A stretch of DNA of 64,000 bases, from positions 39,082 to 103,081 of the forward strand of contig MFFQ01000066.1 in assembly GCA_001780165.1 (NCBI GenBank), given 5' to 3'. The position numbers were made by a program, and so were the translations under genes. This document shows positions 5,833 to 56,720 of this stretch, one piece after another; positions within the stretch are counted from its first letter, which is position 1, and every line of letters begins with the position of its first letter. The DNA is from Candidatus Eisenbacteria bacterium RBG_16_71_46. GTDB taxonomy: Bacteria > Eisenbacteria > RBG-16-71-46. A model generated the notes under the pieces. That model was not told the DNA's origin and made no database searches. It saw only the letters and a program-made list of their open reading frames with translations.

Positions 5833-7361
5833 GTCGTCACCTCCCCGCCGTCCGCGGCCACGAGCGGCAGGAGAAGGCGCGCGAGCGCCCCATCGACGCG
5901 GTTTTCGATCGTCACGGTGCCCTCGTGTTGGATGGCGATGTCGCGCACCAGGGAAAGCCCCAGCCCGCTGCCGCGCTTCTTGGTGCTGACGTAGGGCTCG
6001 AAGACGCGCCCGACGAGATCGGGGGGCACGCCCGGCCCCTGGTCCAGCACTTCGAGCACGGCGTTGCCGCCTTCGGCGCTGGTCCGCACCTCGACCTGTC
6101 CGCCCCGCGGACTGGCCTCGCAGGCGTTCAGCACCAAGTTGTGGATCGCACGGGAAAGTAGCAGAGAATCGCCCCGCACGGGCAGCCGCGACCCGGCGCG
6201 CAGGGTGACCTCGATCCCTTCGTGCTCGTGCAGTTCCACCGCCGCGCGGGCCACGTCCGTCAGGTCGAGGGTCTCGAAGCGGGGGTCGGGCAGGCGCGCG
6301 TACTCGGAGAACTGCTGGGCCAGCCGCGCGAGCTGCTCGACGCCCCCGTCGAGCGCCCCGATGCCGCTGCGCACCACGTCGCGCTGGTCCTCCGCCACCG
6401 CATCGGTACGCCGCCGCAGCCGGTGCAGCGAGAGCGACATCGGGGTGAGGATGTTCTTGAACTCGTGCGCGAGGCGGCGCGCGACCTCGCGCCATGCCGC
6501 GTCGCGCTCCGCTTCGCGCAGCGCGTCGCGCGCGTCGGCCAGGCGTCCCGTCATGGCGTTGAATGCCGTGCCCAGGGTGCGCATCTCGCGCGCGCCGCGC
6601 GGGTTCACCCGCACGGCGAGGTCGCCGGCGGCCACCTGCTCGAGCGCGCCTGCAAGATCGCGCAGCGGCCGCGCGATCGCGCGTGCGAGCACGTGGGCGA
6701 CCGCGAGCGCCAGCGCCGCCACGCCGAGCACCAGCAGCGCGACCAGCAGCCAGATCGACCGTCGCTGGACGTCCACGACGACGCCCAGGCGGCGGTAGTA
6801 GCCGAGGGCGACGCCGATGCTGTCCAGCTGCGCGAAGTACCCGGGCGGAGCCCACATCGCGGCGGCCACGGCCTCGTCCTCGCCCAGCGGACTCACCCCC
6901 GCCAGCGCTCCCCGGTCGTCGTGAATGACGCGGGTGCTGTGCAGCACGCTCGCGATCTCCGCCGAGAAGTCGGGCGGCTCGGGGAGGAGGATCCCGGGTG
7001 CGACGACCTGCTGGGTCAACGTCCAGCCGCCCGTCTTGCGGCGATAGAACTGCACCACGTCCGTCCCGGACGCGCGCAGCAGGCCCTCGGCGAGCGTGCG
7101 CCGCTCCGCGTCGCGCGCGGGGCCTCCCGTGCGCCCCACGCGGCTCGCGAGCTCGTCCGCCAGCGCCAGGACCGTGCTCTCCATGCGGATCAAGCCGTGC
7201 TTCGAGACCTCGACGGCCTCCTCCAGGGCGCGGTGGACGCCGGGGCGGAACCAGCGCTCCGCGGATCGCCCGAGCTGGTCGAGCGTGAAGAGGGTGAAGA
7301 CGAGGGTCGGGAGCAGCGCGAGGGCCAGCAGCGACAGCAGGAGTCGCGCGCGCAGGCTCAC
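5829..7361 (-). CDS. Sensor histidine kinase (TM, HAMP, HisKA, HATPase_c), NtrY-like.
   Basis: N-terminal TM segments. H-box HEFKNILTPMSLSL. C-terminal ATPase G-boxes (DQGPGVPPDLVGRVFEPYVSTKKRGSGLGLSLV). Translationally coupled to the downstream response regulator. Confidence 0.85.
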   Translation of the reverse strand: MSLRARLLLSLLALALLPTLVFTLFTLDQLGRSAERWFRPGVHRALEEAVEVSKHGLIRMESTVLALADELASRVGRTGGPARDAERRTLAEGLLRASGTDVVQFYRRKTGGWTLTQQVVAPGILLPEPPDFSAEIASVLHSTRVIHDDRGALAGVSPLGEDEAVAAAMWAPPGYFAQLDSIGVALGYYRRLGVVVDVQRRSIWLLVALLVLGVAALALAVAHVLARAIARPLRDLAGALEQVAAGDLAVRVNPRGAREMRTLGTAFNAMTGRLADARDALREAERDAAWREVARRLAHEFKNILTPMSLSLHRLRRRTDAVAEDQRDVVRSGIGALDGGVEQLARLAQQFSEYARLPDPRFETLDLTDVARAAVELHEHEGIEVTLRAGSRLPVRGDSLLLSRAIHNLVLNACEASPRGGQVEVRTSAEGGNAVLEVLDQGPGVPPDLVGRVFEPYVSTKKRGSGLGLSLVRDIAIQHEGTVTIENRVDGALARLLLPLVAADGGEVTT

Positions 7362-9209: not shown

Positions 9210-10166
9210 ATGCGTGTCGGTGCAATTGATATCGGCTCGAATTCGGTTCGCCTGCTGGTGGCGGAGTTCCCCGACGGCCCCTGGAGCCGGGAGGTGATCA
9301 CGGTGGCGCGGGCCGGCGAAGCCTGCCGGCTGGGCCGGGGTCTCGGCCGCACGGGGAGGATCGAGCCCGGGACCGCCGAGCGCGCGGCGGTCCTGGCGGC
9401 CGAGTTCGCCAGGCGGGCGCGGGGGCTCGGAGCCGCGACGATCCTGATCGGCGCCACGGCCGCGCTGCGCGAGGCCGAGAACGGCGGCGAGGTGGCGGCC
9501 GCGATCGGCGGGCGTGCCGGGATCCCGGTGCGGGTGCTGAGCGGCGACGAGGAAGCCCGCATGGTCTATCGCGCCGTGGTGCTGGGGCTCGGTCCCACCG
9601 CCCGGGAGAGCTCGTGCGTGGTGTTCGACATCGGCGGCGGCAGCACCGAGGTGGTGAGCGGGGCGGGGGAGCGGACGGGACGCTGGACCAGCCTGCCGTT
9701 CGGTGCCGTGAGCCTCACCGAGCGCCACCTGACGTCGAACCCGATCACGGACGCCGAAGTCGCCGCACTCCGCGCCGAGGTCCGCTCTTCAATTATGCAT
9801 CAATGTGCATATATGCCAGAGCGTTCCCCGCTGTTCGCGGGGGTGGGAGGCACCATCACGGTGCTGGGCCTGCTCGACCGCGAGCTGTCGAGCTACGATC
9901 CGGGACTGCTGGAGGGCTGGTGCATCCGGCGCGGGCGGCTCGAGGCGCTGATCGGGCGCCTGCTCCGCTCGAGCCAGGACGAGCGCCGGGGCTGGCCGGC
10001 GATGAGCGAGGGGCGGGCCGACATCGTGGTGGCCGGGGCCCTGGTGGTCGGGTTGCTCGCGGAGCGGTTCCCCTCGGAGGGGCTGTTCTGCTCGACCCAG
10101 GGCCTTCGTTACGGGCTCGCGCGGCTGGCCGCGCAGGAGGCGCTGGACGGGGGGGCGTCGCCGTAA
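9210..10166 (+). CDS. ppx: Exopolyphosphatase / guanosine pentaphosphate phosphohydrolase (Ppx/GppA family).
   Basis: N-terminal AIDIGSNSVRLLV motif and DIGGGSTE second phosphate-binding motif, both typical of the Ppx/GppA ASKHA fold. Confidence 0.8.
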   Translation: MRVGAIDIGSNSVRLLVAEFPDGPWSREVITVARAGEACRLGRGLGRTGRIEPGTAERAAVLAAEFARRARGLGAATILIGATAALREAENGGEVAAAIGGRAGIPVRVLSGDEEARMVYRAVVLGLGPTARESSCVVFDIGGGSTEVVSGAGERTGRWTSLPFGAVSLTERHLTSNPITDAEVAALRAEVRSSIMHQCAYMPERSPLFAGVGGTITVLGLLDRELSSYDPGLLEGWCIRRGRLEALIGRLLRSSQDERRGWPAMSEGRADIVVAGALVVGLLAERFPSEGLFCSTQGLRYGLARLAAQEALDGGASP

Positions 10167-10345
10167 TCCGGAGCGAATGAGGCGTTGACGCCTTGCCGGG
10201 GCGGGCGGATACTTGACGCAGGCTCGACACAGGAAAAGACGAACCTGAGGTCCCCGCTTCAGAAGCAAGTCCCGCTGGTCTTCCTCCGGACCACGCCGCG
10301 GGACGTCGTTTTCTCTCACCGCTAACGCGGAGGAGCAGGTAGCGC

Positions 10346-10663
10346 ATGAACGTACTCAGGAAGCTCGTGGTCACCCTGGCCCTGGTAATCGCAGTGGCCG
10401 TCGCCGCGGGCGCGCCGAGCGCGCACGCCGCGAGGGTTCATCTGGGCGTGATCACGAACAGTTACGCGGATGCCCGCCAGCCCGGCATCGGTGGCAACAG
10501 CGGCGAACCCGACGTGGGTCAGACCGCGACGCCGATCAAGACCCCGGAGATCGGATCGCGGACGCACGCGGGCGAGCTGCGGCAGCCGGACCGAGCGCGA
10601 AGCGTGCTGTTCGCGTGGAGAGGGTGGCTGTGGGCGACGCGTTTCCCGGGAATCAGGTTGTAG
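10346..10663 (+). CDS. Small secreted protein of unknown function (105 aa).
   Basis: Strong RBS (GGAGGAGCAGGTAGCGC-ATG), clear signal peptide (LVVTLALVIAVAVAAGAPSAHA). Lower-GC segment. Confidence 0.4.
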   Translation: MNVLRKLVVTLALVIAVAVAAGAPSAHAARVHLGVITNSYADARQPGIGGNSGEPDVGQTATPIKTPEIGSRTHAGELRQPDRARSVLFAWRGWLWATRFPGIRL

Positions 10664-10773
10664 CTCTCCGTCACCACGCGGAGCCCGAAATCCCGGCAGT
10701 CTCGTGTCCTATGCGCCGGTCCGATTCGCCGGAGCATACTCGCGTGATGAGAATGTAAATCGAGGAATCAAAC

Positions 10774-13700
10774 GTGCAGCGAGCGATCCCCCCCGATCTG
10801 ACGCCTGCCCATCTTCCCTCGAAGGAAGGTGCCGAACAGCGCGAAGCGATCGGCGACCTGCATCTGGCAGCAGACAACTTTCCGGGCGCGGTGGAGGCCT
10901 ACACCGCGGCGCTCCGGGATGCCGGCCCCGGGCAGCCCACCGACCGCACCCGCGTGCTGCTCCGCCTGGCCGAGGCGCAAACCCGCCGCGGCGACTATGA
11001 GGCCGCCCTGCGCGCGCTGCGCGAGGCGCGCGGCCTCTCCCGACTGCTCCACGACCCGCGGCTCAATGCCCGCATCGCCGCGCGCATCGCCGACGCCCTG
11101 ATCGAGCAGGGCGAGTACCGGCACAGCCGGCGCTACGCGCTGTACGCCTACGCCGCCTTGCGCGACACCGACGAGCACCGCACGGTCGGCCAGGTGGCGG
11201 TGGCCCTCGGGTTGTGCGCGGTGCGTCTCGGGCGAGCGAACGAGGCGATCGAGTGGCTCCAGAACGCCGCCGCCACCTTCCGCCGCATCGACGACGTGGA
11301 CGGGCTGGTGACGGCGCTCAACAACCTCGGCCTGGTGTACAAGAACCTGCGGGAGTGGCGCGAGGCCACGCGCTTCCTCGAGCAGGCGCTGCGTCTCGAC
11401 GAGCGTGCGGGACTCTACGCGCGGATGCGCGGCCACAACCAAAACCTCGGCCTGATCCGCTTCCGCCTCGGCCAGTGGGATCTCGCGGAAGAGAACTTCC
11501 ACCAGTCGCTCAAGATCTCGCGTGAGACCGGCCACCTGCAGGGCGAGTCCGTCGCCCTGCTGGCGCTGGGCATGCTGTTCCGCCGCCGCCGGCAGCTCGA
11601 GCGCGCCGAGGAGAACTTCCGCCGCTCGCTCGCGCTCGCCGTGCAGGTGGGCGCCCAGCGCGAGTCGCTGCTCGCGCGCGAGTTCCTCGCCGAGATCGAG
11701 CTCGACCGCGGTCACGCGCAGGGTGCCAGGGAGCTGCTCGAGCCCGCGCTGCAGGAGGCGATCGAGCTGGCGCCGGAGGGCGACCTGGTGGCCGAGATCG
11801 AGATCCGCCTCGGGCTCGCCTTGCTGGCCGACTCCGCGCGCGACGCCGCCGAGATCCATCTGCTGCGGGGTGCGGCGGTGGCCGAGCAGATCGGCGACCG
11901 CATCGAGCAGGCGGTGGCCGAGCGCGGGCTGGCGCGCCTCGAGGCGATGCGCGGCAACGCCGTCGGCCTCGAGGCCCGCATCCGGGCGGCGGCCCACAGC
12001 TTCGAGCTGCTGAGCGAGACCTACGAGCTCGCCACCACGCTCGCCGCCTGGGGCGAATACCTGCTGCTGCTGCCCTCCAGCACGCGGATGCGGCTCCCGC
12101 TCGACGCGGTGATCGACTCCAACCGCCGCGGTTCCGCACTGTTCCGCCGGCTGGGCCTGACCGCGCACGCCGCCGAGGCGCTGCTGACGCTGGCGCGGCT
12201 CGAAGCCGAACGCGAGCACTACGACCAGGCGCTGTCGCTGCTGGAGCGGGCCGAGGAATGGCTCGCCGACGCGGCGCCCGCCGACGGCGGCTCGCCCGAG
12301 GCGGCGGAGCGCGCGATCGAGCTGCGGCGCCAGATCGAGCAGCAGTACGTGGCGGTGTCGCTCTCGACCTGCAACGAATTCCGCGCGCTGGAGGACGCCA
12401 ACCGACTGTTCCGCGAAACCGCCGACATGAACGGACTGCTCGCCCAGACCGTGAAGCTCGCGGTCGAGCAGAGCGGCGGCGACCGCGGGTTCGTGGCCTT
12501 CAGCTCGAACGGCAACCGGCTCGACGTGGTGGCCCAGCACGGGCTCGGGCGTGATCGCGCCCGCCGCATGATGCGCGCGATCGAAAGCGTCGGCGGCAGC
12601 CGCCTGGTCGAGAACGGCCCGCTGTTCTCGAGCCGCGTGACGGCCGATTCGCGCTTCGCCTCGGCGCTCACCGACGCGCTCGAGGGGGTGGGGTCGCTGG
12701 TGTGCGTCCCGCTCAACTTCCCGTCCCAGGCCATCGGACTGGTGTACGTGGACCGGCTCAACGACAACCTTCTCGGCGCGTTCAAGCAGCGCGAGCTCAA
12801 CCTGCTCGCGGTGCTCGCCAACAGCGCCGCGGTCGCGATCGTCGAGGCGCAGCGCTCGCTGTTGCTGATGGAGAACCGTGAGCTGCGCGACCGGCTGCGG
12901 CCGAGCCCCGCCGTCCAGCGCGTGGTCGGGCAGTCGCGCGAGATGGCCAACATCATGAACCTGCTGGCGAAGGTCGGCGACAGCAACGCCACCGTGCTCT
13001 TCATGGGCGAGACCGGCACCGGCAAGGGACTGCTCGCGCAGGTCGTGCACGAGATCTCCAACCGCCGCGACCGGGCCCTGGTGCAGGTGAACTGTGCGGC
13101 GATCCCCGAGCAACTGCTCGAGAGCGAGCTGTTCGGTCACGTGCAGGGCGCCTTCACCGGCGCCACGCGCGACAAGACCGGCCTCTTCGAGGAGGCCGAA
13201 GGCGGGACGATCTTCCTCGACGAGATCGAGAAGGTGCCCGAGTCGGTCCAGGCCAAGCTGCTCCACGTGCTCGATCGCAGCGAGATCCGCCCGGTGGGCT
13301 CGACCCGCAGCCGCAAGGTCAACACGCGGGTCATCTGCGCCACCGGCTGCGACCTTCGCGACCGCATCAAGGAGGGGCGGTTCCTCGAGGACCTCTACTA
13401 TCGCCTCAACGACATCACCGTGCGGGTGCCGACCTTGCGCGAGCGGCGCGAGGACATCCCGGTGCTGGCCCAGCACTTCCTCGCGGTGTACTCGCGACAG
13501 ATGGAGAAGGAGCTGCGGGGCTTCTCGCCCGAGGTCATGCGCGTATTCCTCGAGCACGAGTGGCGCGGCAACGTGCGCGAGCTCGAGAAGACCGTCAAGC
13601 GTATGATCGTCCTCGCCGACGACGGCGGGCTGCTCGACGTCGAGCTGCTGCCGGCCGAGACCCGCGAGGCCACGACGGCCGCGGAGCCGGCGCCCGCCGC

Positions 13701-13875
13701 GGGCGGCAGGACCCTGCGCTCCAACGTCACGCAGCTCGAGCGCCGCATGATCGCCGAGGCGCTCGATCGCAATCGCTGGAACAAGGCGCGCACCGCGCGC
13801 GAGCTCGGCCTCAGCTATCCCACGCTGCTCTCGAGAATCCGCAGCTTCAAGATCGAGCGGCGCCGTCCGGCGTAG
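10774..13875 (+). CDS. Sigma54-dependent transcriptional activator (bacterial enhancer-binding protein) with N-terminal TPR repeats, a GAF domain, an AAA+ sigma54-interaction domain and a C-terminal Fis-type HTH.
   Basis: TPR-like repeats in residues 1-480. GAF-like block (~res 540-700). GETGTGKGLLAQVVH Walker A. ESELFGHVQGAFTGA (GAFTGA). C-terminal ELGLSYPTLLSRIRSF HTH. GTG start with GAGGA RBS. Confidence 0.85.
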   Translation: MQRAIPPDLTPAHLPSKEGAEQREAIGDLHLAADNFPGAVEAYTAALRDAGPGQPTDRTRVLLRLAEAQTRRGDYEAALRALREARGLSRLLHDPRLNARIAARIADALIEQGEYRHSRRYALYAYAALRDTDEHRTVGQVAVALGLCAVRLGRANEAIEWLQNAAATFRRIDDVDGLVTALNNLGLVYKNLREWREATRFLEQALRLDERAGLYARMRGHNQNLGLIRFRLGQWDLAEENFHQSLKISRETGHLQGESVALLALGMLFRRRRQLERAEENFRRSLALAVQVGAQRESLLAREFLAEIELDRGHAQGARELLEPALQEAIELAPEGDLVAEIEIRLGLALLADSARDAAEIHLLRGAAVAEQIGDRIEQAVAERGLARLEAMRGNAVGLEARIRAAAHSFELLSETYELATTLAAWGEYLLLLPSSTRMRLPLDAVIDSNRRGSALFRRLGLTAHAAEALLTLARLEAEREHYDQALSLLERAEEWLADAAPADGGSPEAAERAIELRRQIEQQYVAVSLSTCNEFRALEDANRLFRETADMNGLLAQTVKLAVEQSGGDRGFVAFSSNGNRLDVVAQHGLGRDRARRMMRAIESVGGSRLVENGPLFSSRVTADSRFASALTDALEGVGSLVCVPLNFPSQAIGLVYVDRLNDNLLGAFKQRELNLLAVLANSAAVAIVEAQRSLLLMENRELRDRLRPSPAVQRVVGQSREMANIMNLLAKVGDSNATVLFMGETGTGKGLLAQVVHEISNRRDRALVQVNCAAIPEQLLESELFGHVQGAFTGATRDKTGLFEEAEGGTIFLDEIEKVPESVQAKLLHVLDRSEIRPVGSTRSRKVNTRVICATGCDLRDRIKEGRFLEDLYYRLNDITVRVPTLRERREDIPVLAQHFLAVYSRQMEKELRGFSPEVMRVFLEHEWRGNVRELEKTVKRMIVLADDGGLLDVELLPAETREATTAAEPAPAAGGRTLRSNVTQLERRMIAEALDRNRWNKARTARELGLSYPTLLSRIRSFKIERRRPA

Positions 13876-14091
13876 GACACGCTGGATCCTTTCCAATCCT
13901 CCTGTAAAACTCCTTAACAACCAATCCCTTCCCGGGGGCCGACTTAGCCCGAAGGCGTCGGGATTCGTAATTCGGTTACGAGAATGTGTCCCCGCGGACC
14001 CCCGCCGCGGTCTCCCACCGGACCACGATTCGCTCCCTCAAGAACGTGCAGAGCAATCTGTTGCGCGATTCATCGCGGTCTCGCGTGTCTC

Positions 14092-14107
14092 TGGCACGCC
14101 GGGTGCT
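14092..14107 (+). promoter_or_regulatory. Sigma54 (-24/-12) promoter P1: TGGCACGccggGTGCT.
   Basis: GG at 14093-14094 and GC at 14105-14106 with canonical 10-nt spacing. TGGCACG matches the consensus exactly. Predicted TSS ~14118. A 14-bp palindrome CGCGATTCATCGCG (14064-14077) lies just upstream. Confidence 0.5.
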
Positions 14108-14117
14108 CATGATCACC

Positions 14118-14544
14118 CAGCGGAGGGGGGGGACCTCCAAACCGTTCAGCCGCTTCGGCGGTTGGACCACCATCTGGGCTAGCCGGTTCCGCGGAGGATC
14201 CGGTCGAGGGTACGAGCCCCGGTCTTGAGACAACGCACCGTCCTCTCGGTCCGGCTAGCTTGGAGTGAATCCGATTCCCGGGGAGCGGCCCGTTCGAGTG
14301 GTTGGGACCGCGTAAGCAATCCCGGTCCAGTAGGTTACAGACCCGGAACACAGCGCACTTGGGTGTAGGACACCGGCTCGAAACGCGACGTGGGCCAACA
14401 CTGGGGGATGTCGAGGCTCTTGTCTCGTGATGCTTCGGCCGGTGTCCTCGTTTTGAGGGTGTAGCGCGTACCGCACAACCGCGACGCCGCTGCACACCCT
14501 CCAGCCGCTCCCGGAGAGTTCCCCGGGGGCGGCTTTATTCGTTT
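14118..14544 (+). ncRNA. Candidate sigma54-dependent structured ncRNA (~420 nt), or a long untranslated transcript, between P1 and an intrinsic terminator. Family not identified.
   Basis: No credible ORF on either strand. GC drops to roughly 58-60%. Two C(U)UCGG tetraloop hairpins (CCGCUUCGGCGG 14150-14161; GCUUCGGC ~14432). A 10-bp long-range helix GGACACCGGC (14368-14377) / GCCGGUGUCC (14438-14447). Bounded by promoter P1 and the terminator at 14503-14544. Confidence 0.3.
14503..14544 (+). terminator. Rho-independent terminator-like hairpin: 12-bp stem AGCCGCUCCCGG/CCGGGGGCGGCU (one G-U pair), 8-nt loop, then UUAUUCGUUU.
   Basis: Inverted repeat read directly from the sequence, followed by a T-rich tract. 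Sits ~60 nt upstream of promoter P2. Confidence 0.45.
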
Positions 14545-14605
14545 AGTCCATGCGGGCGAGGGGGATAGACTGGGTCGAGGCGGATCGGCTGGGGGCCGAT
14601 CGTGC

Positions 14606-14620
14606 GTGGCACGGGGGTTG
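14606..14620 (+). promoter_or_regulatory. Sigma54 (-24/-12) promoter P2: TGGCACGggggTTGCC, driving the lipoprotein/secreted-protein operon.
   Basis: Near-perfect match to TGGCACG-N4-TTGCW. Predicted TSS ~14632, 45 nt upstream of the ATG at 14677 (RBS GGAGG at 14663). The -12 element is embedded in a perfect 9-bp inverted repeat GCACGGGGG-TTG-CCCCCGTGC. A 7-bp inverted repeat GATCGGC-N5-GCCGATC (14582-14600) abuts the -24 element. Confidence 0.6.
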
Positions 14621-14676
14621 CCCCCGTGCGCGGACAGGGTTTTCAAGACGCCGTCCCCCGATGGAGGTCTCCTCGG

Positions 14677-15510
14677 ATGCTCAAGCTCTGGCTACCCCTT
14701 GCTTGCGGCCTGCTGCTGCTGGCGGGCTGCGAAGATCACAACACCTCACCGCGCGACCTGACCCCGCCCGCCGCACCCCGCGGGCTCTACAGCGTGACCG
14801 GGGACCGGGGGGTCCGCCTCTACTGGCTCGACAACACCGAAGCGGACGTCGAGGGCTACCGGATCTACGCGTCCCCCTGCGCGAGCGGCGACCAGTGCCC
14901 CTACACCCGGGTCGGCGTCACCACCGGCACCTCGTTCGCCGTGACCAGTCTCGTCAACGGCACGACCCGCTACTTCGCGGTGGCGGCCTACGACCGCTAC
15001 GGCAACGAGAGCGATCTCTCCTACGAGGATGTGTTCGACACGCCGCGTCCGGCGGGCACCGGGCTGCTGCTCACGAACTACAACGACGATCCGTCGCGCA
15101 GCGGGTACGACTTCTCGGACTTCACCGTCCGTCCCTGGGACGACGAGCTCACCGACATCTTCTTCGACGACGACGGACGCGTGTCGCAGATCCGCACCCC
15201 CTTCACCGACACCGACATCCAGGACGCCGGCTACGCCTCGAGCCTGGACGCGGTCGACTTCGCGCCCGGCTCGGGCTGGTCGCCCACCGGCGCGGTCGAG
15301 GCGATCGCCGGCCACTGCTACGTGGTCTGGACGTACGACGACCACTACGCCAAGTTCCGGGTCACGAGCGTCACCCCCGGTCGCGTGATCGTGGACTGGG
15401 CCTATCAGGTGGACCCCGGCAATCGCGAGCTGCGCGCGCGGCCGGCGCCGGGCGCCGAGGGCCGGGTGCGGCGGCCCCTGGCCGGGGCGCCGGGAGGAGT
15501 GCCCCGGTGA
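14677..15510 (+). CDS. Lipoprotein with a fibronectin type III-like domain.
   Basis: Lipobox LLLLAGC. YRIYASP...YFAVAAYDRYGNES FN3-like pattern. Good RBS. Confidence 0.6.
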   Translation: MLKLWLPLACGLLLLAGCEDHNTSPRDLTPPAAPRGLYSVTGDRGVRLYWLDNTEADVEGYRIYASPCASGDQCPYTRVGVTTGTSFAVTSLVNGTTRYFAVAAYDRYGNESDLSYEDVFDTPRPAGTGLLLTNYNDDPSRSGYDFSDFTVRPWDDELTDIFFDDDGRVSQIRTPFTDTDIQDAGYASSLDAVDFAPGSGWSPTGAVEAIAGHCYVVWTYDDHYAKFRVTSVTPGRVIVDWAYQVDPGNRELRARPAPGAEGRVRRPLAGAPGGVPR

Positions 15511-15530
15511 GCTGGACGCGCTGGAGCGGC

Positions 15531-16055
15531 ATGGGCGCGGGCCTGCTGGCGGTGTCGGGCTGCGCCTACGGCTACGGGATGACCCGGGCGGAGGTCGCCT
15601 ACAGCGCGTCGTCGCGGCCCGATGCCAGCTATTACTGCTATGATTGTCACGGCTACCGGTACTTCGATCCCTACTACGACTGGTGCGCCGGGCTGGGCTT
15701 CCGCTACGGCTGGTCGAGTCACCCGCGCGTGATCGCGATCTACCGCCAGCGCTACGTCGGCATCCGCGAGAAGCACCCCGAGTACGGCCGCTACCGCTAC
15801 CCGCGGAATTACCGACGGTGGGATACTTATCGGAAGCCGCAGGACTACGACGGCTGGCGGAGCCGGCAACATCAGGGCACGGTCAGGGAGAGGGAGAAAG
15901 TCAGGGACGGCGGCAAGGCCCCGCGCATCGAATCGCGAAGAGAGAAGGAGCGGGACCGCAAGGAGCCGACTGGGAAAGAGGACAAGCGCCGCGAGCGCAG
16001 GAAACCCCGCGACGACGGGTCGCGCGGTTTCCTGCAGCAAGGAGTTCAATCATGA
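15531..16055 (+). CDS. Cys/Tyr/Arg-rich lipoprotein with a CYDCH...DPYY..C motif and a basic Lys/Arg/Glu-rich tail.
   Basis: Lipobox LLAVSGC. Motif YYCYDCHGYRYFDPYYDWC is shared with the next gene. Confidence 0.5.
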   Translation: MGAGLLAVSGCAYGYGMTRAEVAYSASSRPDASYYCYDCHGYRYFDPYYDWCAGLGFRYGWSSHPRVIAIYRQRYVGIREKHPEYGRYRYPRNYRRWDTYRKPQDYDGWRSRQHQGTVREREKVRDGGKAPRIESRREKERDRKEPTGKEDKRRERRKPRDDGSRGFLQQGVQS

Positions 16056-17461
16056 GCGCACGAAGGTTGTGGGTGGTGGCGCTGGCGGCCGGGCTCGCCC
16101 TCACGGCGCCGGTTCCGGCGCACGCGGGCGATCTCTCGGTCGAGGTCTGGACCGATCGCGGCAACGATGCGGTCTACCAGCCGGGGGACGCGATGCAGAT
16201 CAAGGCGCGCGCCTCGCACGACGCCTACCTGCTGGTGTACGAGATCGACGCCGAGGGGGCGGTGCACGTGCTGTTCCCCTACGAGAGCCGGCCGGCGCTG
16301 GTGGAGGGGCGGCACACCTACCGCATCCCGAGCGATGACGCCGGCGTCGACCTGGTGGTGCAGGGCCCGGTGGGCGAGGGCTACATCGTGGCCATCGCCT
16401 CGGCGGAACCGTTCAGGTCGCTGCCGTGGTACCTGCGGCCCTACGATCCCAAGGGCGAGGCGCTGGGCTACGTCGGGCAGCCCGAGGAGGAGGATGGCAT
16501 CACCGCCGAGGGCCGCATCGTCGGCGATCCCTTCGTCGCCATGGAGCGCATCCGCCGGCGCGCGGTCGAGCGCTCGGACGACACCGAAGCGTTCGCCACG
16601 GCCTACACGTCCTACTACGTCCATCACGAGGTGCGCTATCCCCGCTACGTCTGCTACGACTGCCACCGCCCGAGCCATTGGGCGTGGTGGGACGGCTTCG
16701 ATCCCTACTACGCCACCTGCTCGGTCGTGGACCTGCGGGTGAACTGGGCCTGGTCCTGGGGCCGGCCCTACTGGGTCGGCTTCGTGCCGTACTACTGCTA
16801 CTCGCCCCGAGCGGGTCTTGGGCCGAGGTACCGCCACTGGGCCTGGAACAGGGGCTGGTACTCGTCGTGGGACGGTTGGGGCCGCTGGAACAAGCTTTGG
16901 GGAGGTCCGCTGGTGCGCTACAAGTCGCCGCCCCCGCCCGGCTACCGGCCGCCCGCGGATCGAGGCCCCGGCGGCAAGGTGCGCGAAGGCGGCGGCCGGC
17001 CGCCCGGCTTCCTCGACCGCACCGTGACCCGGACGCGCTACGGGATGCAGACGTCAGTGCCGATCGGTGCCAACCGCCGTGTCCGTGACGAAGGCTCCGA
17101 TCCTCCGCGCCGCGAGCGCGCGAGCCCGGTGCTGCGCCGTGACGCGCCCGAGCGCATGCCGGTGCGCGAAGTGCGCCGCGACGACGGTGCCGGCCACCGG
17201 GTCGGCGATGCCGGCCGCCAGCGCGATGAGGTCCGGCGCCAGCCGGCCTCGCCGGCACCCCGCGTCGAGCGCGCGCCGCCGCCGAGGGTGCAACGCGCGC
17301 CCGAGGGGCGTCCGGCGCCGCGCCAGGAGTCTCCGCGCGTCGAGCGATCCCCGGAGCACAGGGCGCCCGACCCGCAGCCCGCGCGGGAGCAAATCGACCG
17401 CGCACCGCGCGAGCGGCCTCAGCGGGAACCGGCGCGGGAGAAGAGGGGTAAGAATCGCTGA
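16052..17461 (+). CDS. Secreted protein: N-terminal beta-rich domain (possibly DUF4384-like), central Cys/Trp/Tyr-rich module (YVCYDCH...DPYYATC), and a C-terminal Arg/Pro/Glu-rich low-complexity tail.
   Basis: AAGGAG RBS. Signal peptide WVVALAAGLALTAPVPAHA. Start overlaps the previous gene's stop. Confidence 0.55.
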   Translation: MSARRLWVVALAAGLALTAPVPAHAGDLSVEVWTDRGNDAVYQPGDAMQIKARASHDAYLLVYEIDAEGAVHVLFPYESRPALVEGRHTYRIPSDDAGVDLVVQGPVGEGYIVAIASAEPFRSLPWYLRPYDPKGEALGYVGQPEEEDGITAEGRIVGDPFVAMERIRRRAVERSDDTEAFATAYTSYYVHHEVRYPRYVCYDCHRPSHWAWWDGFDPYYATCSVVDLRVNWAWSWGRPYWVGFVPYYCYSPRAGLGPRYRHWAWNRGWYSSWDGWGRWNKLWGGPLVRYKSPPPPGYRPPADRGPGGKVREGGGRPPGFLDRTVTRTRYGMQTSVPIGANRRVRDEGSDPPRRERASPVLRRDAPERMPVREVRRDDGAGHRVGDAGRQRDEVRRQPASPAPRVERAPPPRVQRAPEGRPAPRQESPRVERSPEHRAPDPQPAREQIDRAPRERPQREPAREKRGKNR

Positions 17462-17532: not shown

Positions 17533-18456
17533 ATGACTCGCGCCACGCCCATCCTCCCGCTGGTCCTTCTGGCCGTCCTCGGCCTCGGCGTTTCGCCGGC
17601 GGTGGCCGGACCGCCCGGCTTCGCCTTCCTCGAGGTTCCCGCCGGAGCCCGTGCCTCGGCGCTCGGCGGGGCCTACGCGTCCCTCGCGCGGGGCGTGGAA
17701 GCGGCGTTCTGGAATCCGGCCGGCCTCGACGAGGTGTCGGGACTTCAGGTCGCGGGGTCGCACTACGAGTTCTTCGAAAAGCTGAGGCACGACCAGTTCG
17801 CCGCTGCGGGCCGGCTGTGGGGGGGAGGCGTGAGCGCCTCGCTGCGCGCGCTCTACACCGAGCCGATCGACGAGCGCGACGAGCTGGGGAACCTGATCGG
17901 CACGTTCGGCTCGAACGATCTCGAACTCGCGATCGGCTACGGCCGGGGGGTCGCTCCGGGGGTCGCGCTCGGCGGGCTGGCGCAGATCGTGCGCGAGCGC
18001 ATCGCCAACAGCGCGGCCACGACCTACGCCTTCGGGTTCGGGGGCTCCTGGGAGCCGGCGCCGCTGCCGGGCGTGCGCCTGAGCCTGAGCGCCCACAACC
18101 TGGGACCGGCGGCCGCGTTCACCATCGATGGGGCGCAGGGTGCTGCGGTGCCGCTGCCGTCGGCCGTCCAGACGGGCGTGTCCTTCGGAGTCGCCGCGGC
18201 CCACGGACTCCAGATGCGCGGTGCGCTGGAAAGCCGCTTCACCCGCGGGCGCGGCGGTGTGGCGATGATCGGCGGCGAACTGGCCAATGCCGGCGGAGCC
18301 GCGGTGCGACTGGGCGTGCGCGTGAACGACGACGCCTCGACCCTGAGCCTGGGCGCGGGCTACGCGCTCGAGGCCATGCGCCTCGACTACGCGTTCGTCC
18401 CGATGCGGCTCGACGTCGGCGACACGCACCGGTTCTCGTTCTCCGCGCAGTTCTGA
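17533..18456 (+). CDS. Outer-membrane beta-barrel protein (C-terminal Phe), PorV/PorQ- or FadL-like small OMP.
   Basis: Signal peptide. Gly/Ala-rich alternating strands. Terminal ...FSFSAQF. Confidence 0.55.
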   Translation: MTRATPILPLVLLAVLGLGVSPAVAGPPGFAFLEVPAGARASALGGAYASLARGVEAAFWNPAGLDEVSGLQVAGSHYEFFEKLRHDQFAAAGRLWGGGVSASLRALYTEPIDERDELGNLIGTFGSNDLELAIGYGRGVAPGVALGGLAQIVRERIANSAATTYAFGFGGSWEPAPLPGVRLSLSAHNLGPAAAFTIDGAQGAAVPLPSAVQTGVSFGVAAAHGLQMRGALESRFTRGRGGVAMIGGELANAGGAAVRLGVRVNDDASTLSLGAGYALEAMRLDYAFVPMRLDVGDTHRFSFSAQF

Positions 18457-55829: not shown

Positions 55830-56720
55830 ATGGCCGTCGAGATCACGGGCGCCACAACTCAGGTCAGCGTTGGCGAGAAGATCACGCTCGGGGTCAAGTT
55901 CACCAAGGAATGGGGCGTGCTCAAGAGCGTCGACTGGTCCATCCCCGGGAAGGTGATCAAGAATTACACGTGCAACTTCGCGCAGGGCAAGCTCGAGGTG
56001 TTTGCCCCCCCGGGCCCGGGCAAGTTCGCGGCCGAATTTCACTGGGTGGACGGGGCGGACGGCCGCGTGGTCGAGGCCAAGTGCGTGTTCACGGCCTCCG
56101 GGAAGGACGTGAACAAGACCGTTTCCGCGACTTTCGACGTCAAGCGCCCGAAGCTGGACTCGTATACGTCGGCGACCGGGAGTGTGAAGATCGACGGCGA
56201 CAAGATGGGCCTTCTCGGCCCCGGCATCACCTGGACCGCCAAGGTGTCGCCCAACGGGGCCCGCGCTGGGTTGATCGCATTCATTCAGCAAATCAAACCC
56301 CACCGGGTCTGGGTGCCGGGGAAGAAGTGGAGCTCGGGTGGCGTGTTCGTGCTCGACGGAGCCGCCGGTAAGTCGAAGATCTTCTACGCGCAACAGACCG
56401 AATCGCTGTCTGGTGGCACGGCAACGCTGACCTCCAACGACAGCCCATCGAATCCTCTGAGTGCCTTCCCGGCAGCGCTCACGAACACGGGGGAAGATGC
56501 ATTCAAGATCTTCGTGATGTACCAGTCGTCGGCCGCCGGCAGTCTCTGGGTTCCGCTGGGGGTGCTGGCGTGGAACTGGAAGGGTGAGGCGCGACGAGGG
56601 TCAACGGGTGATCCATGGGCGATGCACGGTACGCCTTCCTGGTCTGTAAACCCCTCCGGTGCAGACACACTGGATTTCCCTGAATGGAGCAAGTACTACC
56701 CGAACCTCGGCTACACGTAG
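55830..56720 (+). CDS. Novel 297-aa protein with no recognisable domain and no signal peptide; candidate T6SS cargo/effector.
   Basis: Clean ORF with RBS GAGGG. Shares its N-terminal 28-aa module with the fragment at 54912. Lower GC than the T6SS core. Confidence 0.5.
   Translation: MAVEITGATTQVSVGEKITLGVKFTKEWGVLKSVDWSIPGKVIKNYTCNFAQGKLEVFAPPGPGKFAAEFHWVDGADGRVVEAKCVFTASGKDVNKTVSATFDVKRPKLDSYTSATGSVKIDGDKMGLLGPGITWTAKVSPNGARAGLIAFIQQIKPHRVWVPGKKWSSGGVFVLDGAAGKSKIFYAQQTESLSGGTATLTSNDSPSNPLSAFPAALTNTGEDAFKIFVMYQSSAAGSLWVPLGVLAWNWKGEARRGSTGDPWAMHGTPSWSVNPSGADTLDFPEWSKYYPNLGYT

Follow-up and report, generated by a model that had tools for sequence, protein, structure and literature searches.

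Sigma-54-dependent regulatory RNAs are, to our knowledge, few in number (Qrr, CrcZ/CrcY, GlmY and Pxr), and all of them come from Proteobacteria or Myxobacteria. Here we analyse a 64-kb stretch of DNA from Candidatus Eisenbacteria bacterium RBG_16_71_46 (hereafter the window, whose positions serve as coordinates unless another locus is named), in which a predicted RNA of about 340 nucleotides (nt) lies between the gene for a sigma-54 activator, a bacterial enhancer-binding protein with TPR and GAF domains, and an operon for outer-membrane proteins. The Eisenbacteria RNA is distinctive in coming from an uncultivated phylum, in being unusually large and structured, in its strict linkage to the activator gene in more than 120 loci, and in having a concrete candidate target, the mRNA of that activator.

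Among the described systems, CrcZ, with about 400 nt, falls in a similar size class. The order cbrB, RpoN-dependent promoter PcrcZ, crcZ is found in all Pseudomonas, and a small RNA (sRNA) gene placed directly downstream of its sigma-54 activator gene, with its own RpoN-dependent promoter and an activator site in the spacer (PMC5113210), is also the arrangement predicted here. The two RNAs have no similarity in sequence or structure, with no Rfam match at the thresholds tried; CrcZ sequesters Hfq/Crc via repeated A-rich motifs, whereas the Eisenbacteria RNA repeats no motif other than its two G-rich loops and has a complex covarying fold, and it belongs to another phylum and to an activator with a TPR-GAF sensor in place of a response-regulator receiver. 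The Qrr sRNAs are about 100 nt long, Hfq-dependent and multi-copy, and use a linear seed in the luxO 5′ untranslated region (UTR). They depend on the sigma-54 activator LuxO and pair with luxO mRNA, which closes a feedback loop (PMC3262071), and this is the same circuit logic as that proposed below, from predicted pairing, for the Eisenbacteria RNA. In contrast to Qrr, the contact proposed here is loop-loop and lies among the first codons; just one RNA would take part, ~340 nt long and bearing two loops that are redundant. In myxobacteria, nla19 is followed by a 262-nt spacer with a sigma-54 promoter and then by pxr (PMC5568312); there, too, the sRNA is encoded behind the gene for a sigma-54-dependent regulator, in an intergenic spacer whose counterpart in the window measures 216 nt (240–363 nt in relatives). 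The part of that report drawn on here describes no feedback on nla19 (PMC5568312) and gives Pxr as 108 nt with three stem-loops, compared to an Eisenbacteria RNA that is three times larger, has a multi-helix junction and is unrelated in sequence.

Judged from sequence comparison, the Eisenbacteria RNA would be a sigma-54- and activator-linked regulatory RNA of a new family, outside the CrcZ, Qrr and Pxr families. In its length of several hundred nt, multi-helix core, strong covariation, narrow range and discovery by comparative genomics it is like raiA, OLE, ROOL and GOLLD, none of which it matches; unlike most of these, it offers a candidate target, always has the same genetic partner and is preceded by a promoter of clear type. 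Recognition between complementary hairpin loops is familiar from OxyS-fhlA and CopA-CopT, OxyS using two loops, with one fhlA site in the coding region near the start codon. Those pairs were shown experimentally, whereas the pairing proposed here is deduced from invariant complementary homopolymer loops, and loops of G6–7 and C6–7 are unusual. With this family, regulation in Eisenbacteria would become approachable for the first time and Rfam would gain a new entry, for which the covariance model and alignments suffice as a seed. If the feedback proposed below is real, a circuit running from activator to sRNA and back to activator arose independently outside Proteobacteria, via loop-loop recognition.

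A conserved structured RNA downstream of the activator gene

Related loci were collected in two ways. Retrieval with the activator protein gave a genome set of 49 loci from species-representative genomes, nearly all of them Candidatus Eisenbacteria metagenome-assembled genomes (MAGs) with 64–89% amino-acid identity to the activator, and a pattern drawn from the RNA alone (5′ hairpin plus GCTAG) gave a metagenome set of 91 stretches, of which 80 were taken as loci. In the window, GC content falls from 0.70–0.75 inside the activator gene (10774–13875, + strand) to 0.60–0.66 over 13800–14500, a drop already remarked in an earlier note on this DNA, and the intergenic DNA is conserved at the nucleotide level among orthologous Eisenbacteria loci, beginning at a promoter that we call P1. 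The RNA was present in 44 of 44 genome loci of sufficient sequence and its full 5′ domain in 78 of the 80 metagenome loci; the metagenome loci with enough upstream sequence all had promoter P1, ending 9–12 nt before the conserved RNA, and in every case the end of the activator gene 240–363 nt upstream. With this co-occurrence in every genome or metagenome locus with enough sequence, about 120 loci show the RNA and the activator as an inseparable pair, and the neighbour named in the earlier note as the likely activator is linked to the RNA in every locus examined.

The RNA is predicted to fold into two domains, all helices being on the + strand. The 5′ domain (14118–14267; alignment A2) has seven helices. 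Helix P1 is the hairpin GGAGG-GGGGGGA-CCUCC (14122–14138) and helix P2 a variable, covarying hairpin with CUUCGG (14145–14166); the 14-bp helix P3 (14173–14186 with 14251–14264) encloses helix P4 (14191–14197 with 14242–14248), helix P5 (14201–14204 with 14237–14240), helix P6 (GGG-UACGAG-CCC, 14208–14219) and helix P7 (14222–14231). A linker that is free in length and sequence (14268–14366; alignment A1) leads to the 3′ domain, a long rod-like hairpin (14367–14448; alignment A5) composed of the 13-bp basal helix S1 (14367–14379 with 14436–14448), helices S2 and S3 (14383–14396 with 14415–14428) and an apical hairpin, GCA-CUGGGGGA-UGU (14398–14411), the loop motif of this domain, GGGGGATG, starting 104–222 nt past the end of the 5′ domain across loci. 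When the region from promoter P1 to promoter P2 is aligned, sequence conservation starts at ~14118 and the invariant CGGAGGGGGGG(G)ACCUCCA begins ~3 nt after the predicted +1; the layout is an invariant 5′ hairpin, a variable hairpin, a highly conserved block, the free linker and a second conserved block. Of two C(U)UCGG hairpins described in the earlier note, the one at 14145–14166 is real and covaries, but the other, at 14433–14438, is no hairpin loop in the conserved fold, being part of a bulge and of the 3′ strand of S1, the basal helix of the rod; the 10-bp long-range helix described there is replaced by two long helices, P3 with 14 bp and S1 with 13 bp.

Covariation was scored on MAFFT alignments fitted to no structure, with slid 3′ partners and 500 shuffles as controls. 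In the 5′ domain 92.5% of cells were paired, compared to 31–52% with the partners slid, and 92 cells held double changes, compared to a shuffle mean of 30.8; the 3′ domain gave 87.6% compared to 29–42%, and 98 double-change cells compared to a mean of 37. In neither domain did any of the 500 shuffles reach the observed count. G-U cells outnumbered A-C cells by 188 to 49 in the 5′ domain and by 137 to 22 in the 3′ domain, a 4- to 6-fold excess indicating that the constraint acts on one strand of RNA. The covariance model of the 5′ domain (R1), run on 44 genome loci and 78 metagenome loci, scored 101–158 bits on the + strand and below 21 bits on the − strand, with a single copy per locus. Single-sequence folding was not decisive, because both strands beat their shuffles (z = −3.7 for the RNA and −3.1 for the opposite strand).

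No Rfam family matched at the gathering threshold in the window or in nine diverse orthologous loci, and none of the Rfam 15 families CrcZ, Qrr, Pxr, GlmY, CsrB/Rsm, 6S, RNase P, tmRNA and SRP did so; at E up to 10, the region gave terminator-like partial matches alone (P17, 20.5 bits compared to 45; BcKCsr2, 13.8 compared to 40). A search for tRNA and tmRNA found none, and a literature search found no paper linking Eisenbacteria to this RNA. We are highly confident that the + strand encodes a genuine structured RNA here, its orientation being set by promoter P1, and it appears to constitute a previously undescribed family, new to Rfam and confined to Candidatus Eisenbacteria as far as searched. 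The sigma-54-type structured RNA that the earlier note had proposed between activator and envelope operon is thus borne out, at the level of sequence, by conserved promoters, strand-specific covariation and the lack of a coding frame.

Sigma-54 promoters, flanking DNA sites and predicted transcript ends

Promoters were searched for with TGGCAC-N5-TTGCW, allowing at most one mismatch, on both strands of the whole window and with a shuffle control. The sole two matches, both on the + strand, were promoter P1 (TGGCACGCCGGGTGCT, 14092–14107, predicted start ~14118) and promoter P2 (TGGCACGGGGGTTGCC, 14607–14622, predicted start ~14633), each of the −24/−12 type, in which exactly one turn of the helix separates the GG from the GC dinucleotide. 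Because 16 of 100 shuffled windows gave at least two matches (mean 0.71), the matches in the window are by themselves suggestive, and the proof comes from conservation, since a P1-type motif recurs at its position in 123 related loci and a P2-type motif at its own in 101. In these orthologues promoter P1 reads TGGCAY-N5-NTGCW and ends 9–12 nt before the conserved RNA, promoter P2 reads TGGCAY-N5-TTGCS, and in the alignment GG and GC (TGGCA, TGC) are invariant while the N5 spacer drifts. The earlier note had placed P1 exactly here and had recognised P2 as well, 1–2 nt off at 14606–14620. The neighbouring gene encodes an enhancer-binding activator that has the GAFTGA loop, and from this adjacency and the strict co-occurrence we infer that it turns on both promoters. 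That the RNA is sigma-54-dependent is, on the evidence of these motifs, probable.

Several conserved DNA elements surround the promoters. An IHF-like element, TTGC-N5-CAAC-N2-GTT with a CAA-N4-TTG core (14046–14063, + strand), lies ~30–46 nt upstream of the −24 element of P1; among 105 unique regions upstream of P1 (ungapped consensus), 60 had CA[AC]N4TT[GA] between −40 and −55, and promoter P2 is likewise preceded by a similar element. Beyond the IHF-like element, the upstream alignments revealed no enhancer motif common to P1 and P2. An alignment of 42 upstream regions also revealed conserved elements after the activator stop codon (13902–13965, + strand), of which the first, AT-rich and palindromic, reads TATCAA-N7-TTGATA in relatives and is degenerate in the window, and the second is a covarying hairpin (13923–13965) with a conserved loop, ACUUAG, and a T-rich stretch after it, whose stems vary among loci yet stay complementary (e.g., GGCCCATG/CATGGGCC compared to GAAGGGCCCCGG/CCGGGGCCCTTC). 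These elements are probably the terminator of the activator gene, an upstream site for promoter P1, or both. The strongly conserved loop of this hairpin, CACUUAGCC, on its covarying stem is unusual for a plain terminator.

A further conserved element, GGTGTRGCG-N-CGCACACCTGCG-N-CGCAC (14457–14499, + strand), consists of an inverted repeat with a direct repeat of CGCACACC. Its distance to promoter P2 is fixed (median 130 nt, mostly 128–134), its distance from the 3′ helix of the RNA varies from 25 to 171 nt, and, as read from the alignment, changes in one half (CTGCG, CGCAC) occur without compensation in the other. RNA helices at this place were rejected in view of the uncompensated changes and of the spacing fixed to P2 and not to the RNA, and for the same reasons we read the element as a probable enhancer (upstream activator sequence) of promoter P2, one that may also be transcribed if the first terminator of the RNA is read through.

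That first terminator is probably a U- and C-rich tail, T1 (CGUUUUGA, 14449–14456, + strand), directly 3′ of the 3′ domain. Of 91 unique loci, 54 had five or more T among the eight nt of T1 and 75 had four or more, which is striking in genomes of ~70% GC, and the insertions of 40–150 nt found in relatives fall 3′ of it. A terminator scan identified a second, canonical intrinsic terminator, T2 (14503–14544, + strand), with a 12-bp stem (10 G-C) followed by UUUAUUCGUUU; the hairpin proper occupies 14503–14534 and runs into the T-rich TTTATTCGTTT. The earlier note had ended an RNA of ~420 nt at T2, and the 12-bp stem and T-rich tail that it described are there, but no more than 29 of 91 unique loci have a comparable hairpin and T-tail, and T1, at ~14455, is the likeliest end of the conserved RNA, with a predicted length of ~338 nt (about 340). 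T2 would then be a fail-safe end in this genome, with a predicted read-through RNA of ~427 nt (about 425).

A candidate target in the activator mRNA

Two invariant loops of the RNA, GGGGGGA (14127–14133) and GGGGGAU (14403–14409), are complementary to a C-run, AUCCCCCCC (10786–10794, + strand), in codons 5–7 of the activator gene, at +13 to +21 of the activator mRNA. In minimum-free-energy and consensus folds the run occupies the loop of a hairpin, GAUC-CCCCCC-GAU(C/U) (10783–10797, + strand; codons 4–8; GAUC-CCCCCC-GAUC in the window), the closing G-C pair of which becomes G-U in 8 of 35 sequences. Counting both strands, ATCCCCCC occurs once in the 64 kb, at 10786–10793 in these same codons, and over 44 loci of ~15 kb the recurrent UCCCCC sites were the activator start and the antisense of the RNA gene, with no others. 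The sole other + strand C-run of at least seven in the window is at 56005.

The proposed target site is near-invariant in all 45 genome loci, and of the 67 loci with enough sequence in total ~66 keep AU followed by six or seven C; the initiation region around it is likewise near-invariant in orthologues (CGAGGGTTCGAAAA GTG CAG CGA GCG ATC CCC CCC GAT). Identity at third codon positions is 0.93–1.0 in codons 3–8 compared to 0.35–0.65 in codons 12–30. Elsewhere in the activator genes, proline is encoded by CCG in 60% of cases and CCC in 34%, arginine by CGA in 3.4% and aspartate by GAT in 24%, and the protein sequence is variable directly after VQRAIPPD. Since synonymous sites are fixed with minority codons while the protein varies past VQRAIPPD, the constraint acts on the nucleotides. 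The matching loops, GGGGGGA and GGGGGAU in the RNA and AUCCCCCC in the mRNA, sit on three hairpins with unrelated stems, suggesting loop-loop recognition rather than a shared DNA site. Opening of the loops was calculated to cost 0.7–4.6 kcal/mol and the hairpin-limited duplexes to yield −26.7 and −16.7 kcal/mol; hairpin-limited values were used because whole-RNA duplexfold gives physically meaningless long-loop duplexes. As expected of a base-pairing sRNA, an accessible conserved seed faces a conserved site in an initiation region, both in predicted loops, and the predicted ends have the form of an intrinsic terminator with a U tail, T1 in most loci and T2 here.

The downstream operon was also considered as a target and rejected. 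The 5′ UTRs that start from promoter P2 are short, unconserved apart from the Shine-Dalgarno (SD) sequence, and without enrichment of complementarity to the RNA loops; CCCCC was present in 2 of 81 compared to 8.7 expected, so that C-runs are if anything depleted, and a UCCCCC upstream of the lipoprotein SD in the window (14646–14651) is unconserved. A leader or riboregulator for that operon had been the alternative offered in the earlier note, and it finds no support here, the sole conserved complementary site being in the activator mRNA.

A proposed feedback circuit and its alternatives

The explanation that we favour, with somewhat more confidence than doubt, is a family of sigma-54-driven RNAs together with feedback pairing on the activator mRNA. 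The RNA would be transcribed from promoter P1 with a start, predicted with good comparative support, at ~14118, would fold into the seven-helix 5′ domain and the rod-like 3′ domain with the free linker between them, and would end at T1 near 14455 (~340 nt), T2 acting as the fail-safe here (~425 nt). The adjacent TPR-GAF activator, to judge from adjacency and co-occurrence, would turn on P1 and also P2, and through P2 the lipoprotein/DUF4384/PorV-PorQ outer-membrane operon. The RNA would then act in trans on the activator's own mRNA, where the loops GGGGGGA, right at its 5′ end, and CUGGGGGAU, capping the 3′ rod, would kiss AUCCCCCCC through seven or eight G-C-rich pairs. Because the C-run at +13 to +21 lies inside the 30S footprint, the RNA would exert feedback on how much activator is made, the simplest way being to block initiation. 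As to whether the RNA and the activator mRNA do pair in feedback, the complementarity leaves our judgement evenly balanced. That the feedback is negative, with initiation blocked as by Qrr on luxO, is the direction we prefer, but only tentatively and with considerable doubt, and a positive effect on the activator could occur instead. The invariant P3–P7 core lies outside the proposed pairing and probably has a further role; since loop pairing does not explain it, an additional partner of the RNA is suggested. The core, conserved to the degree of a ribozyme or riboswitch, might bind a metabolite or protein and so gate the kissing of G-loop and C-loop, forming a phylum-wide autoregulatory module, a speculation that we consider improbable but that, if true, would mean a signal-sensing RNA wired directly into the sigma-54 circuit for the outer membrane. 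We know of no sensor-plus-kissing sRNA of such kind.

Several observations weigh against this explanation. The G loops and the C-run are all invariant, so that intermolecular covariation is unscorable, and G-run length is only weakly associated with C-run length (Fisher p = 0.06, uncorrected for phylogeny). One locus (L012) is a clear exception, with AUCCCCAG in place of the C-run and RNA loops that have not changed. Runs of C and G are common at 70% GC, and because shuffles give 3.4 ATCCCCCC per window, the argument for the target is one of location and conservation, not enrichment. Constraints of mRNA structure or translation efficiency could account for the conserved first codons of the activator, and the elaborate invariant 5′ core exceeds the needs of a kissing partner. 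In another locus (L035), from an Eisenbacteria MAG, the linker holds a 727-nt insertion of lower GC (62%; positions 9474–10200 of that locus) between the 5′ and 3′ domains, with a well-formed SD and an open-reading frame (ORF) of ~125 amino acids that has a lipoprotein-type signal peptide (MQHASPNRIYRAVVFVALATVLGVVSLTLSQC...); two domains that a gene can separate may function separately. As for the activator, its link to the promoters is one of adjacency. The candidate upstream sites differ, with the AT-rich palindrome at P1 and GGTGTGGCG/CGCACACC at P2, only the IHF-like element being common, and the lack of an obvious shared enhancer weakens the case for control of both promoters by the adjacent activator. 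The RpoN motif was not found in ~1.1 Mb around this one locus in relatives, a coverage at which the result is uninformative.

The RNA might instead be a protein-binding, sequestering RNA like CsrB/RsmZ or CrcZ, whose GGA loops or 5′ core titrate an RNA-binding protein, and the C-run match would then be fortuitous or reflect another function. The apical hairpin GCA-CUGGGGGA-UGU does end in GGAUGU within a CA/UG-closed loop, and the 5′ hairpin also has a GGA, on the 3′ side of its loop. We take the apical hairpin to resemble the CsrA ligand RUACARGGAUGU from SELEX (systematic evolution of ligands by exponential enrichment), and count this for sequestration. The multi-helix core P3–P7, ~100 nt and near-invariant phylum-wide, is typical of protein- or ligand-binding RNAs, the helix-P6 region UCGAGGGUACGAGCCCC resembles the activator SD region UCGAGGGUUCGA in what may be mimicry, and the RNA of the cbrB-crcZ precedent is a sequestering one (PMC5113210). 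However, the conserved GGA motifs in exposed loops number two, whereas at least 4–20 would be expected of a sponge. Csr/Rsm sponges usually carry many more GGA motifs. Sequestration would also leave the synonymous-site conservation of the activator C-run unexplained, and we regard it as unlikely; that CsrA and Hfq motifs were not found in ~1.1 Mb around this one locus is uninformative at such coverage. It seems to us distinctly unlikely that the P1 transcript is a cis-acting leader of the outer-membrane operon, its 5′ domain sensing a signal and its 3′ hairpin and U tail forming a conditional terminator whose read-through adds to transcription from P2. The RNA is on the same strand and invariably upstream of the same operon, its 3′ domain is terminator-like with a U tail after it, and the ORF between the domains in L035 would turn the 5′ domain into a genuine 5′ leader and place the 3′ domain at the 3′ terminus. 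Yet a conserved P2, an upstream element at fixed distance and an IHF-like site intervene before the first gene, the linker from sensor to terminator is free in length and sequence, unlike riboswitch expression platforms, a further terminator follows in a third of loci, and the apical loop of the supposed terminator is invariant, which termination does not need.

Two further possibilities dispense with a functional RNA. The conserved blocks could be DNA-level sites only, enhancers or operators, as 14457–14499, the IHF-like elements and the AT-rich palindrome appear to be, and the invariant 5′ hairpin is a DNA palindrome too, over +4 to +21 of P1; we hold this to be very improbable, given many compensatory changes that preserve pairing while the sequence shifts, the 4- to 6-fold excess of G-U over A-C, a covariance model that is strongly strand-specific, and ~250 nt of conserved helices placed downstream of the promoter, not upstream. 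A small protein missed by the ORF scan is scarcely credible. Mechanical ORFs of 42–141 amino acids do exist on both strands (e.g., 14070–14495 on the − strand, 141 amino acids), but the longest differ by strand, frame and position, and none was kept open across 37 orthologues, in accord with the earlier note, which had found no credible ORF. Lengths from P1 to P2 are spread evenly modulo 3 among orthologues, the invariant block contains a 1-nt indel (7 compared to 8 G), and the invariant CTAG in both strands of helix P3 creates stop codons.

Gene context and further observations

The activator (1033 amino acids) has TPR, GAF, AAA+ and Fis-type helix-turn-helix domains by Pfam (Sigma54_activat at 1e-64, TPR_12, GAF, AAA_lid_14, HTH_8), with intact motifs (GAFTGA at residue 792, Walker A at 745, Walker B at 813), and matches a Candidatus Eisenbacteria bacterium RBG_16_71_46 protein with 100% identity. 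When the TPR-GAF part of the activator served as query, 277 proteins were returned, the best 120 of which were all 67–76% identical, except the window's own. The operon behind promoter P2 (14677–18456, + strand; Pfam and NCBIfam) is syntenic in 32–39 loci and comprises three genes, for a lipoprotein with a lipoprotein signal peptide and a weak fn3-like region (14677–15510), a DUF4384 protein (15644–17461; DUF4384 at 1.3e-18) and a PorV/PorQ-family outer-membrane protein (17533–18456; PorV_fam, 110 bits compared to a cut-off of 90). The lipoprotein gene starts at the ATG at 14677, not 14678, with its SD, GGAGG, at 14663–14667. The syntenic order is an ArsR-type regulator, Ppx/GppA, the activator, the RNA, the lipoprotein, DUF4384 and the PorV/PorQ-family protein, followed by LpxH on the opposite strand. 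Four contigs from MAGs labelled Udaeobacter, Limnocylindria, Saccharimonadaceae and Gammaproteobacteria (L006, L010, L022 and L049) carry a fully syntenic Eisenbacteria locus with 72–89% identity, and are probably mis-binned or belong to mislabelled MAGs.

A 1050-amino-acid open frame lies antisense to the entire activator gene (10768–13920, − strand); far from being a gene, it is the kind of shadow ORF typical of high GC, and so is a long open frame at 14550–16055 (+ strand), out of register with the real lipoprotein gene. The gap between Ppx/GppA and the activator (10167–10773, ~600 nt) has a sole, weak candidate ORF, at 10346–10663, with no tblastn match in related loci.

The invariant helix-P6 region of the RNA, UCGAGGGUACGAGCCCC (14204–14220), resembles the ribosome-binding region of the activator gene in orthologues, UCGAGGGUUCGA...CGAGCGAUCCCC (e.g., positions 5982–5996 of L005), and the window's own activator SD region has diverged to UCGAGGAAUCA; the resemblance could reflect mimicry, common descent or chance. 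A conserved hairpin, whose stem covaries and whose loop is (A/C)CGAACC, is located ~40 nt upstream of the activator SD (10714–10772 in the window; about 5940–6000 in L001–L047), and this loop is complementary to GGUUCG directly 3′ of the SD (GAGGGUUCG). In the window, loop (CGAUUC) and SD flank (GGAAUC) have changed together with five pairs retained, and in L035 the loop is CGAGCC and pairing is retained via G-U; several other loci do not fit. The predicted pairing between this 5′-UTR loop and the SD flank is possibly a pseudoknot that masks the ribosome binding site of the activator.

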